Shown: in pieces, positions 20,582-32,759 of the stretch
How positions within the stretch are numbered: the stretch's first letter is position 1
How the letters are laid out: the number at the start of each line of letters is the position of its first letter
Source: Spirochaetia bacterium
GTDB lineage: Bacteria > Spirochaetota > Spirochaetia > Treponematales > Treponemataceae
Length of the DNA: 64,000 bases
Assembly (NCBI GenBank): GCA_900767955.1
Contig: CAAGBC010000049.1
Span: forward strand, 14,992 to 78,991
Direction of reading: 5' to 3'
Program-made: the position numbers and the translations under genes
Notes under the pieces: generated by a model
Told to the model about the DNA's origin: nothing
Database searches by the model: none
What the model saw: the letters and a program-made list of their open reading frames with translations, nothing else

Positions 20582-21223
20582 ATGAAAAAATTAGCTCTAA
20601 GTTTGGTTGCATTGATGTTTGCTACAAGCGTTTTTGCAATGAATTTTTCTGTTGGTGCAAAAGGAAATATTGGTATTGCAACTACAATTCAATCTGTGGA
20701 TGATGAACCTGTAGAAGATATTTTACCAGTTTTCTCTGGTTCAATTGGTGGTGTATTTGGTATTCAGTTTACAGAAATGTTTGCACTTGAACCTGAAGTA
20801 ATGTTCCATTTTGGAAACGGTTTTTCAATGGAAAATGAAATGTATGGTAAAACAGTAAAATATTCTTATAATTGGACTACTTTAGAAATTCCTGTAATGT
20901 TTAAAGCAAAATTTGCTGTAGGTGATGGTCATTTTGCAGTTGCTGTTGGTCCACAATTTAATTTCCTTTTAGGTGATATTAATGTAAAAAGAGAATATGA
21001 TGGAGATACTGAGACAAAGTCTTATTCTGCAGATGATTATGGCTTTAATACATTTACTTTAGGAATTGGTGTAGGTGTAGAATATGGTTTACCTGTTGGA
21101 CCTGGAGATTTAGTATTTGGTGTTAGATGGCAAATGGATTTAACTAATGTAAAAGAGGATTCAGATTCTCAAGTCAGAAACATGGCAGTTCTTCCATCTG
21201 TAGCATACATGATTAAGTTATAA
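20582..21223 (+). CDS. Outer-membrane beta-barrel protein (paralog 1)
   Basis: Signal peptide. Alternating hydrophobic pattern, Gly-rich strands, C-terminal aromatic residue. Confidence 0.55.
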   Translation: MKKLALSLVALMFATSVFAMNFSVGAKGNIGIATTIQSVDDEPVEDILPVFSGSIGGVFGIQFTEMFALEPEVMFHFGNGFSMENEMYGKTVKYSYNWTTLEIPVMFKAKFAVGDGHFAVAVGPQFNFLLGDINVKREYDGDTETKSYSADDYGFNTFTLGIGVGVEYGLPVGPGDLVFGVRWQMDLTNVKEDSDSQVRNMAVLPSVAYMIKL

Positions 21224-21400
21224 TTAATTTTTTTTAATTAATAATGAGGCTTTCCAAAAAGTGATGTCATAAATATTATGATTTGTGCTTATTGGATAGC
21301 CTCTTTTTTTTATAAATGTTTGATATATGTAATGATATTATAGATTTTTTCTGTTATTATAATCTGAATAATTTATTATTAAAAGTTGGGATTTGACATT

Positions 21401-22108
21401 ATGAAAAAAGTCTTTATCAGTTTAATAGTTTTTGCATTTACAACAAATATTTTTGCAATAGATTTTTCTATTGGTTTAAAAGGTAACATTGGAATTGCTA
21501 ATACTTTTATGGAAGTAGTAGGCGAAAAAGAAGAAACAGAACCTTTGCTTTCTGGTGGTGTAGGTGCTGTTTTGGGTGTTCAGATTTGCGATTGGTTTTC
21601 TGTGGAACCAGAATTTATGATTCATATAGGAAATGGATTTTCTCATGCACAAGTAAATAAAACTACTGGTTACGGAGAACTTTACACAGTAAATTGGACG
21701 ACATTTGAAATTCCTTTGATGGCAAAATTTAAACTTTCAGTTGGAAAAAATAAATTAGTTTTTGCTATAGGTCCTCAGTTCAATTTGTTGTTAGGTGATA
21801 TTAATAGAAGTGTGGAATCAAAAGGTTTTACAGAAGATTATGTATATACCACTGATGATTTAGACATTTATCCATATAGTTTGGGTGCTGCAGCAGGAAT
21901 TGAATATGATATTCCTGTTGGGCCTGGAACTTTTGTTTTGGGTATGAGATATCAAATGGATATTACAAATCTTTGTAAAAATACTAAAGTTTCATCTAAA
22001 GTTGAAAATTCACAATGGCGTAATATGGCGATTTTTCCGTCTATAGCTTATACATTTAGAATTAAATCAAATTCTAATGGAATTGTTAGTGGTTCTATTT
22101 TGCGATAA
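21401..22108 (+). CDS. Outer-membrane beta-barrel protein (paralog 2, tandem duplicate)
   Basis: Clear similarity to 20582-21223 (FSVGAKGNIGIA vs FSIGLKGNIGIA; GPQFNFLLGDIN vs GPQFNLLLGDIN). ATG at 21401 is preferred over the track's TTG at 21386. Confidence 0.55.
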   Translation: MKKVFISLIVFAFTTNIFAIDFSIGLKGNIGIANTFMEVVGEKEETEPLLSGGVGAVLGVQICDWFSVEPEFMIHIGNGFSHAQVNKTTGYGELYTVNWTTFEIPLMAKFKLSVGKNKLVFAIGPQFNLLLGDINRSVESKGFTEDYVYTTDDLDIYPYSLGAAAGIEYDIPVGPGTFVLGMRYQMDITNLCKNTKVSSKVENSQWRNMAIFPSIAYTFRIKSNSNGIVSGSILR

Positions 22109-22217: not shown

Positions 22218-23804
22218 TTGTATATGAAATCAAAAAAATCTGTGATTGTTTTTTCTTGCATTGCGGGAATTCTTTTTATATTTATTTTAGTTAATTTTAT
22301 TTTTTTTAGAAATCGTTCTAATTCTGTTCGTCCAAAAGTTATTACTCCAATTTCTGCAGATTCACAAAATAATAAATTGTCAGAAAATGATGTAGTTTCA
22401 GAAGAAGCTTCTATCACAACTTTTGTTCCTTTGCATTCAACAGAAACATTGATTAACACATTAAATGTTGATTTTGATGGCGATTCTCTTGATGATCAGA
22501 TTGTTGCAGTTCATAAAGCTGATTCTCCTTTTATTTTTTTGATTGTGGGATTATATAATTCCGAATCAAATTCTTATGATAGATTTGCAGAAATTTCTAC
22601 TGAAATTGCAAAAATCAGGACATTTTCATACAGCGCAATTGATATGACTGGAACTCACAAAACAGCTCTAGTTTATCAAGGTGTAAAATCAAATAGTGAT
22701 TCTGTTATGAAAATATATCAATATGAAAAAAAAGGTAAGCGTGGGGAATTAATTCTAATTGGTGATTTTTCATCTGACGGAACAATTTTTATTCAGCAAA
22801 CAGAGCGTTCCGAAGCTTATGAATTATCACAAGCAAAAGGTGCAAGTTACAAAGTTTGGGTTTATTCATCAGATAAAACAGAAGAAAATGTTGATTCAAC
22901 TTCTGGTGTAAGTCAAATTCAAACTGAATACAGCTGGAATGAAGAAGAACAAAAATATACTCAATCAAAACAATTTCGTATTACAGGAAGTAGACTTGCT
23001 GCAAAAGAATTAGCAAGAATTCAAAATGGAAATGTAGATACTTTTGCAGAATATTTAAATGGACTGTGGTATAAAACGGCAAATGCAGGTTCAGAACCAA
23101 GATATATTTATTTTAATTATGCAACAAAAGAAGTTATTTTCCTTTCAGACGGAGCAGAAGGTGTTTATTCTTGGGAAGAAAGTAACTTAAGAAGAAGCGG
23201 AATTTACTTAACAGTTGTTAATTCTATTATTTCAAGTATGAAGCGCCGTTTTGACATTATGCTTACTGGAGTAAATGAAGTATATGTTCATGTTCGCGAT
23301 AACATTGGTATGGTTATTAAAGAAACAAACCAATGGGACGGAACATACAAAAAAATGTCTTTTCAGACAACTTTTATAGATGAAAAGAAAGCTTCTAGAG
23401 ATGAAGAATTCTTAAAAGAATTAACTTCTGGTGAACCTTGGGTTGATAGTGAAGGAAATAAAATTTCCTTTAACAAAAATGAATATATATATGAATATTC
23501 TGATAAAAAAGATGTAGGAATGTATATTTCACAGCAAGTAGGAAGTTATGCAGTAATGCAATTCCGCTCTGATGAAAATAGTGGTTTGTTAAATGATGCT
23601 TATTCTATGAAGTTTGAAACAACAGAAGTTCCTGTGAAGCAAACTCGTAAAAATGCAAAACCAAAAACAAAAACTGTTGTGAATAAAAATATTATTCATT
23701 TTACACCAGTAAATCTTTCTCCTGATACATGTTATGTAACAGAAGGAAGAATCTTAACATTACAAAGAGAATCATCTCTTGACACAAAATCAAAGGCTCA
23801 ATAG
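22218..23804 (+). CDS. Hypothetical membrane-anchored protein (528 aa)
   Basis: N-terminal TM helix. No recognised motif. Confidence 0.45.
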   Translation: MYMKSKKSVIVFSCIAGILFIFILVNFIFFRNRSNSVRPKVITPISADSQNNKLSENDVVSEEASITTFVPLHSTETLINTLNVDFDGDSLDDQIVAVHKADSPFIFLIVGLYNSESNSYDRFAEISTEIAKIRTFSYSAIDMTGTHKTALVYQGVKSNSDSVMKIYQYEKKGKRGELILIGDFSSDGTIFIQQTERSEAYELSQAKGASYKVWVYSSDKTEENVDSTSGVSQIQTEYSWNEEEQKYTQSKQFRITGSRLAAKELARIQNGNVDTFAEYLNGLWYKTANAGSEPRYIYFNYATKEVIFLSDGAEGVYSWEESNLRRSGIYLTVVNSIISSMKRRFDIMLTGVNEVYVHVRDNIGMVIKETNQWDGTYKKMSFQTTFIDEKKASRDEEFLKELTSGEPWVDSEGNKISFNKNEYIYEYSDKKDVGMYISQQVGSYAVMQFRSDENSGLLNDAYSMKFETTEVPVKQTRKNAKPKTKTVVNKNIIHFTPVNLSPDTCYVTEGRILTLQRESSLDTKSKAQ

Positions 23805-29185: not shown

Positions 29186-29473
29186 TTATTTTTCGATTAT
29201 TGCAATAATATCGCTCATTCTTAAGATAAGATGTTCTTCATCATCAATTTTAATTTCAGTTCCAGCATATTTGTCATACATAATTCTGTCACCGATTTTT
29301 ACAGTTACTTTTTCATCTTCTGTACCAGGACCAACTTCAACAACTGTAGCAGTTTGAGTTTTTTCTTGTCCTGCTTCTGGAATAAAAAGTCCACTTGCTG
29401 TTTTTGTTTCTGCTTTATCATTTTTTACAAGAACTCTGTCTGCTAAAGGTTTAATTTTCATTTTGTTATACAC
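29186..29473 (-). CDS. groS: Co-chaperonin GroES
   Basis: MKIKPLADRVLV ... GTEIKIDDEEHLIL is the canonical Cpn10 sequence. Confidence 0.9.
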   Translation of the reverse strand: MYNKMKIKPLADRVLVKNDKAETKTASGLFIPEAGQEKTQTATVVEVGPGTEDEKVTVKIGDRIMYDKYAGTEIKIDDEEHLILRMSDIIAIIEK

Positions 29474-29732
29474 TCCTAAAATTCAGATATTATATCTTTA
29501 AATATAAGAAATAAATGGGGTAAAAGTCAATAAAAAAAATCTGGATTTCATTTTTTTATGAGTCAAAAATACACATTTATTATGTTGTCTTTTTTTGGTG
29601 TGTCATTTTGAATCAAATATTACTGTTGATATTTAGAAGTGAGACTTGAAGAATAATTTTATAGATTTTCTAATTCTTTGTAGTATAAGAAAATATAAAA
29701 TTTTTATAAAAATCTTTTGTTTTTATTTTAAT

Positions 29733-29748
29733 TGGCACGCAAATTGCA
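29733..29748 (+). promoter_or_regulatory. Sigma-54 (-24/-12) promoter upstream of the sigma-factor gene
   Basis: TGGCACG-caaa-TTGCA exactly matches the consensus TGGCACG-N4-TTGCW. It lies about 45 nt upstream of the start codon. Confidence 0.6.
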
Positions 29749-29791
29749 TTGTATATAATGGATACATTTAAAAAATGTGCTGGAGGAAAAT

Positions 29792-30631
29792 ATGGTAAAT
29801 GAATCAAACGTTTTAGAATTATATCTTAGGGATATTAATAAAGTGCCTTTACTAACAAGGGAAGAAGAAACTTCTCTTGCAATAGAAGCAGCAAAAGGAA
29901 ATAAAGCAGCAAAAAATAAGATTGTTAATGCTAATTTGCGCTTTGTTGTGAATATTGCAAAAAAATATCAAAATCATGGACTTGATTTGACTGATTTAAT
30001 TAGTGAAGGAAATATAGGTCTTTTAGTTGCAATTGATAAATTTGATGTAACAAAAGGTTATCACTTTATTTCTTATGCAGTTTGGTGGATTAGACAATCT
30101 ATATTAAAAGCTATTTGCGAAAAAAGCCGTTCGATTCGTTTACCTTTGAATAGAGCAAATGAACTTGTTCGTATTGAACACGCTAGAAAATCAATTGTTG
30201 GTAATAAAACAATTGAGCAAGAATTAACAGAAGTTGCAGAAATGTTAAATATGGATAAAGATCATGTTAGAGAAATGATTAATATTTCCCGTGAAATGAT
30301 ATCCTTAGATGCTGAATTAAGTACTCCAGAAAATGATAAAACAAGCGTTGGTGATTTTATTGAAGATACTCAAAGTGAAAAGCCAGAAGATAAAGTTGTC
30401 AACGATTCCTTAAAAGAAGAAATTGACAATGTTCTTCATACATTAAAACCTAATGAAGAAAATGTTTTGCGTCTTCGCTTTGGTTTAAACGGTGAAAAAC
30501 CAATGTCATTAAAAGAAGTTGGTGATGTTTGCAATCTTACTAAAGAGCGTATTCGCCAAATTGAAAAACACGCAATTTTAAGAATGCAGCATGTTACAAG
30601 AGCTAGACGCCTTGAATCTTATGTTTCATAA
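29792..30631 (+). CDS. RNA polymerase sigma factor, sigma-70 family (group-2, RpoS-like)
   Basis: Region 1.2 and 2 motifs (LYLRDINKVPLLTREEE, DLISEGNIGLLVAIDKFD, YAVWWIRQSI) and a region 4 HTH. RBS ggagga precedes the ATG at 29792. Confidence 0.8.
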   Translation: MVNESNVLELYLRDINKVPLLTREEETSLAIEAAKGNKAAKNKIVNANLRFVVNIAKKYQNHGLDLTDLISEGNIGLLVAIDKFDVTKGYHFISYAVWWIRQSILKAICEKSRSIRLPLNRANELVRIEHARKSIVGNKTIEQELTEVAEMLNMDKDHVREMINISREMISLDAELSTPENDKTSVGDFIEDTQSEKPEDKVVNDSLKEEIDNVLHTLKPNEENVLRLRFGLNGEKPMSLKEVGDVCNLTKERIRQIEKHAILRMQHVTRARRLESYVS

Positions 30632-32759
30632 AAGTAAAAGCGTCTGTTCGTGCGATTTTAAGAATCTCATTATCACGAACAACATCAGCGATTCCTAAAG
30701 TTAAATTTCCTGCTTGTAAGGTTCCGGTTATTTCGCCGGGACCTCTTAATTTTAAATCTTGATTAGCAATAAAAAATCCATCAGTATTTTGTCTTAATAC
30801 TTTCATTCTTTCTATTCCCATTTGGGTTATTTTATTGCTATATATTAAAAAACAAAAAGATTGTTCTGAATTGCGTCCAACGCGTCCTCTTAATTGATGT
30901 AATTGTGCTAATCCAAATCTGTCTGCTTGTTCAATTACGATACAAGTTGCGTTTGCCACATCAACACCAACTTCAATAACTGTTGTTGCTGCCAAAATAT
31001 TTATTGTTCCTTTTTTAAATTCCAAAAGAACTTTTGCTTGCTCTTGTTCATCGATTTTTGAATGAACCAAGGCACATTTATATTCAGGAAATATTTGCTG
31101 TGATAAAATTTGAAACATTGATTCAGCTGATTTTATTTCTGAACCAGAAGAATCTGCTTCAATAGCTGGATAAACAAAATATGCTTGTTTTCCTTTTTGT
31201 AATTCCTTTCTTACAGCGTTGTAAGCATTTTGCTCGTTGCCTTCTTTGACTAAATATGTTGTGATTGGTTTTCTTCCTTCTGGCATTGTTTTGATAACAG
31301 AAACATCTAAATCACCAAAAACTGTTAATGCCAAAGTCTGAGGAATTGGCGTTGCACTCATCATTAAAAGATGTGGTTCAAAAGTTATTTTTTCATCTTC
31401 TGTTGTTCTTCCTTTTTCAATAATTGATTGGCGCTGAACAACTCCGAATCTGTGCTGTTCATCAATTATTGCCAATTGCAAGTCTTTGTATACTACTTGT
31501 TTTGAAAAAAGGGCATGAGTTCCAATGATTATATCAATTTCACCATTGCTTAATGATTTTAATAACTGATTTCGGCCAGAGGCTTTTACATTTCCTGTGA
31601 GGAACGCAATTCTTATTCCTAAGGGTTCCAAGATTGTGGCAGCTGATTCTGCGTGTTGTCTTGCAAGAATTTCTGTTGGCGCCATAATTGCACATTGGCC
31701 TTTCCAGTTTATAATTCTTAAACAAGCAAAAAATGCAACTAAGGTTTTTCCTGAACCAACATCTCCTTGTAACAACCGTGCCATTGTGAATGGAATTTTT
31801 GTTGTTTCATTTTTTAATAATGAAATTCTGTCTTTGTATCCTTGGTCAATGTCGTTATTCATTTGTGTAATAACTTTGCATTGGTCAGGTGTTAAATTAA
31901 ATTTTAATCTGTCTAGCAATTGTTGTTGCAACGGAGATAAAGTTTCGTAAAAATCTTTTTGATTTATGATAAGTTTGTTTTCGGAATAAGTTTCTTCTGT
32001 TTCTAAATCAATTGTTGGAATGTATCCTTTGTGTTTCCATGCGCGAGAAGCAATTACACATTGAAAATTAAATAATTCTTCGTAGATTAATGTGTTTCGC
32101 GCGTTTTGAGCATCATTTATTGTTTTTGGACAATGAATTAATTTTATTGCTTCTTGTTTTGATAATAAATTTCTTTTTTGAATATATTCTTCAGGAAGTT
32201 CGTTTTCAATTCCGTGAACATATTGGTTAATTGCAGTTTGAATAAATTTTCTTATGTTTTTTTGTTTTAGGCCTTCTGTCAAAGGGTAAACTGGAAGAAT
32301 TCCTGTGTCAGGAAGTGGTGTATTTTGAAAATCTTCTAAATTGCCCGAATTTGCCATTTTAACAGCTTCAAATGATGTGCTTTGAATCTGACCATATTTT
32401 TCTGAAAAAGTCCCCGTCACAGCGATTATAGAGCCTACAGGAAGAGAATTTTGCAAGAATTGACGATTAAATGCAATTAATGAAGCAGATGCAGTTCCAT
32501 CGGAAACAATAATTTTTAGGGTTTTCATTTTTCCGTAGCCAAACCATTCGTGGGCAATAACTTGTGCAATTGTATGAACTTTTGATGAAAACTGAAAATT
32601 ATCTATTGAAATGCGTTTAGTTCTATCTTCGTAATTTTTTGGGTAAAATGATAATAAATCAGAAACTGTAAAAATATTTAGTTTTGCAAATAGTTTTGCA
32701 GCTGCAGGGCCGATTCCTGAAATTGTTGTGATTGAATTTTTTATATCTTGTAATTTCAT
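30603..32759 (-). CDS. recG: ATP-dependent DNA helicase RecG
   Basis: Walker A GDVGSGKT, DEQHRFGV box and helicase C-terminal motifs. 718 aa. Confidence 0.85.
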   Translation of the reverse strand: MKLQDIKNSITTISGIGPAAAKLFAKLNIFTVSDLLSFYPKNYEDRTKRISIDNFQFSSKVHTIAQVIAHEWFGYGKMKTLKIIVSDGTASASLIAFNRQFLQNSLPVGSIIAVTGTFSEKYGQIQSTSFEAVKMANSGNLEDFQNTPLPDTGILPVYPLTEGLKQKNIRKFIQTAINQYVHGIENELPEEYIQKRNLLSKQEAIKLIHCPKTINDAQNARNTLIYEELFNFQCVIASRAWKHKGYIPTIDLETEETYSENKLIINQKDFYETLSPLQQQLLDRLKFNLTPDQCKVITQMNNDIDQGYKDRISLLKNETTKIPFTMARLLQGDVGSGKTLVAFFACLRIINWKGQCAIMAPTEILARQHAESAATILEPLGIRIAFLTGNVKASGRNQLLKSLSNGEIDIIIGTHALFSKQVVYKDLQLAIIDEQHRFGVVQRQSIIEKGRTTEDEKITFEPHLLMMSATPIPQTLALTVFGDLDVSVIKTMPEGRKPITTYLVKEGNEQNAYNAVRKELQKGKQAYFVYPAIEADSSGSEIKSAESMFQILSQQIFPEYKCALVHSKIDEQEQAKVLLEFKKGTINILAATTVIEVGVDVANATCIVIEQADRFGLAQLHQLRGRVGRNSEQSFCFLIYSNKITQMGIERMKVLRQNTDGFFIANQDLKLRGPGEITGTLQAGNLTLGIADVVRDNEILKIARTDAFTFMKHKIQGV

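Follow-up and report, generated by a model that had tools for sequence, protein, structure and literature searches.

Does a short sigma factor gene in a gut spirochaete answer to sigma-54, in the manner of the RpoN-RpoS switch of the Lyme disease agent? The question is raised by a 64,000-nucleotide (nt) stretch of contig CAAGBC010000049.1 (GenBank assembly GCA_900767955.1, positions 14,992 to 78,991; 31.8% GC), which is assigned to a Spirochaetia bacterium of the Treponemataceae and is hereafter called the window. There a -24/-12 promoter element of the sigma-54 (RpoN) type, TGGCACGcaaaTTGCA, precedes a gene for a sigma-70-family sigma factor of 279 amino acids (aa). An earlier note on this DNA had proposed that the element is a perfect sigma-54 promoter driving a sigma factor resembling RpoS, in an arrangement identical to that of Borrelia burgdorferi. 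Our comparison of orthologous loci indicates that the sigma gene is probably sigma-54-dependent: the element recurs in front of the orthologous gene in 18 of 19 related loci, where it is nearly always accompanied by a pair of enhancer-like palindromes, and in none of 61 other loci encoding relatives of the protein.

A sigma-54 promoter element upstream of a short sigma factor gene

The features at the start of the gene are the following:

29733-29748, + strand: sigma-54 -24/-12 promoter element TGGCACGcaaaTTGCA (GG at 29734-29735, GC at 29746-29747); exact, unique and conserved
29758-29760, + strand: predicted start of sigma-54 transcription, placed by the usual sigma-54 geometry 11-13 nt past the C of the -12 GC
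29732-29759, + strand: sigma-70-type promoter, TTGGCA (29732-29737), 16 nt, TATAAT (29754-29759); 11 of 12 matches
29782-29786, + strand: ribosome-binding site GGAGG, 5 nt from the ATG at 29792
29792-30631, + strand: sigma-70-family sigma factor, 279 aa, with Pfam Sigma70 regions 1.2, 2, 3 and 4

The element reads TGGCACG (29733-29739), caaa (29740-29743) and TTGCA (29744-29748), so that GG and GC doublets lie 10 nt apart, at sigma-54 spacing, inside the extended consensus TGGCACG-N4-TTGCW. On both strands of the 64-kb window, TGGCACGNNNNTTGCW has its sole exact match at these positions, and the description of the element as perfect was borne out: an exact TGGCACG-N4-TTGCW is expected 0.03 times on average, with three of 100 dinucleotide-preserving shuffles containing any match. 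When up to two mismatches were allowed, the pattern occurred at chance level (8 found versus 6.2 expected in the window), so only the exact match is informative by itself. From the 3′ end of the element to the ATG of the sigma gene, on the same strand, we measured 43 nt (previously given as about 45). Three further assemblies of this species carry the identical element, among them L003, whose nearby sequence differs.

We rejected a structured RNA leader for the sigma gene: the 5′ untranslated region, which would span about 33 nt from the predicted start, has no significant fold (z 0.40) and no Rfam match. Elsewhere in the window, a one-mismatch sigma-54-like site, TGGCACGGTTGTTACA (31768-31783, - strand), falls inside the recG frame on its coding strand; it is without the GC doublet and is most likely a chance match.

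The same nucleotides also form the best sigma-70-type promoter in the 2-kb region scanned. Its TTGGCA matches TTGACA at five of six positions, and its TATAAT is perfect, lying within a tatataat that spans 29752-29759 (the hexamer itself had earlier been placed one nucleotide too far upstream, at 29753-29758). The sigma-54 and sigma-70 readings therefore overlap in one sequence that cannot separate them alone, and we turned to comparison with orthologous loci.

Conservation of the element across Spirochaetia

A scan with one genome per species yielded 80 loci encoding relatives of the sigma protein. Nineteen of these (L006-L023 and L033) are termed clade loci and, with the window, make 20; the 61 non-clade loci come from Gemmatimonadota, Bacteroidota, Ignavibacteriota and similar groups, plus three other Spirochaetota. 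Sigma proteins of the 19 clade loci are 47-69% identical to the window protein and derive from Treponema metagenome-assembled genomes (MAGs), Breznakiella homolactica, Rectinema subterraneum, a Sphaerochaeta MAG and unnamed spirochaetes, which NCBI taxonomy places in Treponematales (three families) and, within Spirochaetales, Sphaerochaetaceae.

The motif TGGCAYG-N4-YTGCW was present with at most two mismatches in 18 of the 19 clade loci (exactly in nine), versus none of the 61 non-clade loci within 400 nt upstream of the gene. The exception, L013, carries TGGCATGCTTCTTGTA (TGGCATG-N4-TTGTA), with GT for GC at -12, and is the sole clade locus without the GC doublet. When loci were aligned on the motif, T-TGGCA-G and TTGC carried 1.7-2.0 bits per position and the flanks were near zero; this conservation holds throughout the GC range of the loci measured (30-51%). 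In the clade loci the motif ends roughly 20-90 nt before a start codon that is preceded by a ribosome-binding site.

The 20 promoter-bearing sigmas formed a single clade in 99 of 100 neighbour-joining bootstraps, with E. coli RpoS, RpoD, the short sigma-A of the Bacteroidota group and three other Spirochaetota outside it. The phylogenetic check suggested by the earlier note was thus run for RpoS and RpoD, both of which lie outside; FliA, the third comparison named there, was addressed by model score, which fell below its cutoff. In 10 clade loci groES is the sigma gene's neighbour, which supports positional orthology. The conserved alternative-sigma cascade that had been suggested for a Treponema lineage would accordingly extend further than proposed, the wiring being conserved well past one such lineage.

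The proposed -10 box behaved differently from the -24/-12 element. Taking TTGGCA as the -35 box and requiring a hexamer 16-18 nt away with at least four of six matches, including A2 and T6, we found a properly spaced -10 hexamer in two of the 20 clade loci, the window and L020. Most clade loci have instead a TATA-rich stretch just past the -12 element, 11-14 nt from TTGGCA, which is too short for sigma-70 and so does not qualify this stretch as a -10 box; it is the region that melts in sigma-54 promoters. Since the -24/-12 element is kept while the -10 box is kept in only two loci, the conserved signal is that of sigma-54. The well-spaced TATAAT, peculiar to the window species, may provide a basal or secondary sigma-70 start, though even granting sigma-54 dependence we regard such an additional start in this species as unlikely.

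Sister to the promoter clade are L024 and L029 (unclassified Spirochaetota) and L066 (a Leptospiraceae MAG), whose first-ATG open reading frames (ORFs) of 338-362 aa carry an N-terminal extension and which have neither the sigma-54 motif nor the palindrome pair; within the phylum, the limit of the cascade might run here. Nine Gemmatimonadota loci (L026, L032, L035, L037, L040, L042, L046, L061 and L083) encode a GSFTGA-type sigma-54 activator about 1-3 kb upstream of the sigma gene, in conserved synteny. We considered a sigma-54 link for these homologues and rejected it because, despite the activator gene nearby, the motif is absent before the sigma gene.

A conserved palindrome pair upstream of the promoter

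Upstream of the element lie two copies of a 17-bp palindrome with the clade consensus TGnGTCAAAATGACnCA, which we reached through an intergenic inverted repeat and alignment with the closest relative:

29559-29575, no strand: distal enhancer-like site TGAGTCAAAAATACACA, two mismatches to the consensus; starts 174 nt upstream of TGGCAC
29599-29615, no strand: proximal enhancer-like site TGTGTCATTTTGAATCA, one mismatch; 134 nt upstream of TGGCAC, 40 bp after the distal start

Sites with at most one mismatch numbered 12 in the 5.8 kb of upstream sequence from the 20 loci, versus none in the remaining 178 kb. We then scored pairs with a position matrix (built without the second sites of L012-L017) at a fixed 40-bp start-to-start offset over each whole locus, for the window all 64 kb. 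The window pair is the best 40-bp-spaced pair in the 64 kb, at 33.7 bits versus 2.1 for the next, and in 19 of the 20 loci a pair at this fixed offset tops the entire locus, scoring 17.6-41.5 bits and lying 136-317 nt upstream of the sigma-54 element. Other 40-bp pairings reached at most 8.5 bits, except for reuse of an enhancer site in L008, L011, L019 and L033 (17-29 bits). Spacing is 41 bp in L009, and L008 has three palindromes at 40-bp steps, approximately 287, 247 and 207 nt upstream of TGGCAC. In controls, comprising non-clade sigma loci and activator loci, no pair exceeded 1.3 bits. The pair is kept in L007, L018, L020 and L023, where groES was not detected nearby, which indicates that it goes with the sigma gene.

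In enhancers of the NtrC family, two inverted repeats of dimer size usually lie at a fixed spacing, 100-300 bp upstream of a -24/-12 promoter. By its position, symmetry, spacing and conservation, the palindrome pair looks like a candidate enhancer for a sigma-54 activator.

The sigma factor and its neighbourhood

The window protein starts at region 1.2, without region 1.1 and without the non-conserved insert, and it reached no NCBIfam equivalog cutoff among the RpoD, RpoS and FliA models: it scored 282 bits against the RpoD model (cutoff 555), 255 against the RpoD C-terminal domain model (354), 259.7 against the proteobacterial RpoS model TIGR02394 (378.7), 242.6 against the RpoS model PRK05657 (394) and 110.4 against the FliA/WhiG (sigma-28) model TIGR02479 (189.6). 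We therefore ruled out a primary (group 1) RpoD/SigA sigma, given the missing region 1.1 and the RpoD scores, as well as FliA/WhiG, given the TIGR02479 score. Among solved structures, Firmicute SigA proteins come nearest (229 bits) and RpoS scores 188 bits; an AlphaFold2 model is all-helical with a mean pLDDT of 94, as expected for the family.

In E. coli RpoS the lysine K173 serves recognition of C at -13. The corresponding residue, E in the aligned RpoD, is N in the window protein and the aligned clade (T in L023), where it sits in a clade-specific LPLNRANEL motif; region 2.4 reads YAVWWIRQ. Because of the sub-cutoff scores, the N at the K173 position and the placement of RpoS outside the clade, the protein counts as a short, group-2-like sigma rather than as an orthologue of RpoS from Proteobacteria. 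The description ‘RpoS-like’ thus holds for its length and group, and fails for the RpoS model and the K173 residue.

Gene callers in public assemblies choose the same 279-aa start. The protein is unchanged in several metagenome assemblies, and copies 97-99% identical are labelled uncultured Treponema sp. Its gene is flanked as follows:

29186-29461, - strand: groES (Cpn10, PF00166), divergent from the sigma gene
30603-32759, - strand: recG, convergent; its 3′ end overlaps that of the sigma gene by 29 nt

The groES-sigma intergenic region of 330 bp (29462-29791) holds the promoter and both palindromes; nusB, a TPR protein gene, yggT and dnaE are also close by. The 29-nt overlap with recG (30603-30631) is called likewise in other assemblies of the species, and the sole terminator-like hairpin past the sigma gene (30719-30744) falls within recG. 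Further away in the window, two small outer-membrane beta-barrel proteins (20582-22108, + strand) are encoded before a 528-aa protein with a pallilysin beta-barrel domain (22218-23804, + strand), the family of T. pallidum TP0751.

An Rrp2-like activator in close relatives

A 64-kb window covers about 2-3% of a typical Treponema genome. It contains neither a GAFTGA activator nor an RpoN box, and at this coverage the absence of rpoN from it says little. Sigma-54 occurs in spirochaetes together with, on average, one or two activators (PMC3162934), and RpoN is documented in B. burgdorferi and Leptospira.

Activator sequences of T. denticola (NP_972572) and B. burgdorferi (Rrp2, NP_212897) came from the supplementary data of Francke et al. 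2011 (PMC3162934). The best 120 matches to the T. denticola activator were all at least 70% identical, and included T. putidum, T. phagedenis and uncultured Treponema sp. Low-GC homologues were chosen by amino-acid composition, and the activator contig P0340, from a Treponema of 51% GC, was set aside. Activator contigs of 30-33% GC had tetranucleotide correlations of 0.94-0.95 with the window; for scale, chunks of about 21 kb from the window correlate at 0.99 with the rest of it.

Gene order in these low-GC Treponema is cvpA, holB, a HisKA/HATPase kinase, the activator and a CCA-adding enzyme. The activator's ESELFGHEKGAFTGA motif is intact and an HTH_8 domain is present; an alignment of 406 residues with B. 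burgdorferi Rrp2 shows 55% identity (E 7e-155), and the best NCBIfam match is AtoC, whose cutoff of 714 bits is not reached (489.7 bits). Borrelia turicatae has its cvpA at a distance of three genes from the activator (Francke 2011 supplement, PMC3162934). Autoregulation of the kinase-activator operon through the palindrome was considered and rejected, as L086, L096, L097, L100 and L101 contain no sites.

The activator loci differ in other respects among Treponema. In seven loci of uncultured Treponema with 51-53% GC (L086-L090, L094 and L095), acetate kinase is encoded about 4 kb away from the activator (e.g., L086:15508-16857), and the gene before the activator encodes a 357-aa protein without a Pfam match in place of a recognisable histidine kinase. 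Acetyl phosphate has been proposed as the phosphodonor of Borrelia Rrp2. Past the kinase-activator-cca block, near-identical contigs diverge: L096:12519-14315 and L098:12519-14318 carry a TnsA-like gene, and the same variable position holds a helicase and an N6/N4 methyltransferase in L097:12519-16541 and L099:12518-16736. This variable island is probably a defence or restriction cassette.

Proposed mechanism and alternative explanations

We propose that the 330-bp groES-sigma region may constitute a complete sigma-54-dependent control region. Sigma-54 RNA polymerase would sit on 29733-29748 as a closed complex, while an NtrC/AtoC-type AAA+ response regulator, the putative Treponema counterpart of Rrp2, would bind both 17-bp palindromes as dimers. 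Once activated by the adjacent histidine kinase or another phosphodonor, this regulator would assemble, loop to the promoter and spend ATP to open it. Transcription would start near 29759 and give the mRNA for the 279-aa sigma, which could in turn redirect RNA polymerase to a second set of promoters (a secondary regulon). On sequence grounds, the system appears to be a two-tier alternative-sigma cascade wired like Rrp2-RpoN-RpoS of Borrelia, here with a candidate enhancer.

Several observations weigh against this proposal. A near-consensus sigma-70 promoter overlaps the element in the window and could carry part or all of transcription; rpoN was not found in the window or the fetched loci by motif scans or by tblastn with E. 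coli RpoN; the Rrp2-like activator is known from contigs of close low-GC relatives and not demonstrably from the window's own genome; and the palindromes, sitting between two divergent genes, could in principle serve groES. If the sigma-70 promoter alone were functional, the sigma-54 match would be a by-product of its TTGGCA -35 box, an idea favoured by the five-of-six -35 match, by the perfect TATAAT and by the failure to find rpoN in the window and the fetched loci. Such a by-product, however, leaves unexplained the invariant G at -24/-25, CAYG and TTGC at fixed spacing in 19 other loci, high-GC ones included, and does not account for the enhancer-like pair or the conserved GAFTGA activator; moreover, the -10 box is unconserved across the clade loci, and we consider this explanation highly improbable. 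Both promoters might instead operate, with sigma-70 providing basal or alternative transcription and sigma-54 the induced transcription, like the overlapping promoters of E. coli glmY. The 11-of-12 match and 16-nt spacer are compatible with, and not exclusive of, a sigma-54 promoter, but with a -10 hexamer at 16-18 nt in only two of 20 clade loci this arrangement, if real, would be a species-specific addition; it is conceivable, although we doubt it.

A different objection concerns the palindromes, which might act as operator for a protein that regulates the divergent groES, or serve some other dimeric factor acting on the sigma gene, and not be the enhancer of an activator. They do lie between both genes, 98-154 nt upstream of the groES start codon, and a weak promoter-like match on the minus strand (29606-29579) overlaps the proximal site. 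Yet the pair persists in the four loci where groES was not detected, NtrC-family enhancers typically show such a position (here 96-317 nt upstream of a sigma-54 promoter) and such a fixed spacing (40 bp), and the palindrome is unlike the CIRCE heat-shock operator, all of which make an operator role improbable. Finally, sigma-54 might have been lost in the low-GC lineage, leaving the promoter as a decaying relic, as the failure to find rpoN in the 64-kb window would allow. A decaying site would hardly be perfect to consensus and identical in three further assemblies of the species, L003 among them, and close low-GC relatives keep an intact activator; a relic is thus scarcely credible. We favour sigma-54 control of the sigma gene over these explanations.

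Relation to known systems

For the Lyme disease agent the RpoN-RpoS pathway serves as the central switch in adapting to the host, and most accounts treat it as a peculiarity of Borrelia. Similar wiring, with a conserved activator and an enhancer-like element, in at least four spirochaete families would give the pathway an evolutionary origin, and it yields a predicted DNA target for Rrp2-family proteins, the DNA binding of which has been a puzzle in Borrelia. Treponema denticola, Breznakiella homolactica and Sphaerochaeta offer tractable or cultivable species in which both signal and regulon could be sought. Should TP1012 of the syphilis agent share the arrangement, it would be among the few defined regulatory circuits in that organism. 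A sigma-54 promoter before a Treponema-type sigma gene was not found described in open-access full text or bioRxiv, though older predictions for small genomes may mention one; TP1012 of T. pallidum is given merely as ‘RNA polymerase sigma factor’, and the Caimano 2019 analysis of RpoS origins leaves Treponema unmentioned (PMC6719511).

The control region has its closest general parallel in NtrC/AtoC-type promoters such as glnAp2 and atoDAEB, which likewise combine a -24/-12 element with two dimer-sized inverted-repeat sites some 100-300 bp upstream. Those promoters serve metabolic operons, whereas the target here is a sigma factor gene, and TGnGTCAAAATGACnCA is assignable to the site of no characterised activator. 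The sigma protein, for its part, resembles the short primary sigma-A of Bacteroidota and Gemmatimonadota, the closest non-spirochaete sequences (43-48% identical, of similar length). These are thought to be the housekeeping sigmas of their phyla and, unlike the spirochaete gene, lack the sigma-54 element and the palindrome pair in the 61 non-clade loci, most of which come from such groups. With proteobacterial RpoS (sigma-S) it shares a group-2-like architecture of regions 1.2-4 without region 1.1, a length in the range of about 280-330 aa and, presumably, a role in stress or adaptation; it differs in its sub-cutoff TIGR02394 score, in N (T in L023) at the K173 position and in the placement of E. 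coli RpoS outside the clade. The Borrelia ‘RpoS’ has itself been argued to have arisen in a separate duplication event (work of Chiang and Schellhorn cited in PMC6719511).

The Rrp2-RpoN-RpoS system of B. burgdorferi (rrp2, BB0763; rpoN, BB0450; rpoS, BB0771) remains the nearest counterpart overall. In both spirochaetes a canonical -24/-12 promoter lies directly upstream of a short sigma-70-family sigma gene (PMC3037356), and both can be linked to an NtrC-type response regulator, the low-GC Treponema homologue being 55% identical to Rrp2 and encoded in the same cvpA-holB-kinase-activator layout as hk2-rrp2. Two differences concern the setting: the host here is a free-living gut commensal and not a vector-borne pathogen, and groES and recG flank the sigma gene, in contrast to Borrelia rpoS, which lies near flagellar genes. 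The most telling difference is in the control region, since the bipartite enhancer-like element is conserved here and Rrp2 has been reported to act without specific binding at rpoS (PMC3037356). The arrangement, once described as identical, is therefore Borrelia-like in its wiring and distinct in its candidate enhancer. BosR sites flank the Borrelia rpoS promoter (PMC3037356).

Taken together, these comparisons suggest that the sigma cascade known in the Lyme disease agent probably has an ancient origin and a wide distribution. We further put forward, tentatively and with our own judgement close to evenly divided, that a cascade running from activator to sigma-54 to a short sigma-70-type factor, with a two-site enhancer, was ancestral in Spirochaetia, encompassing Treponemataceae, Breznakiellaceae, Rectinemataceae and Sphaerochaetaceae and probably also Borreliaceae and T. 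pallidum TP1012. The Lyme RpoN-RpoS switch would then be a derived form that lost its enhancer and no invention of Borrelia, and TGnGTCAAAATGACnCA might represent the long-missing DNA site of the Rrp2 family.

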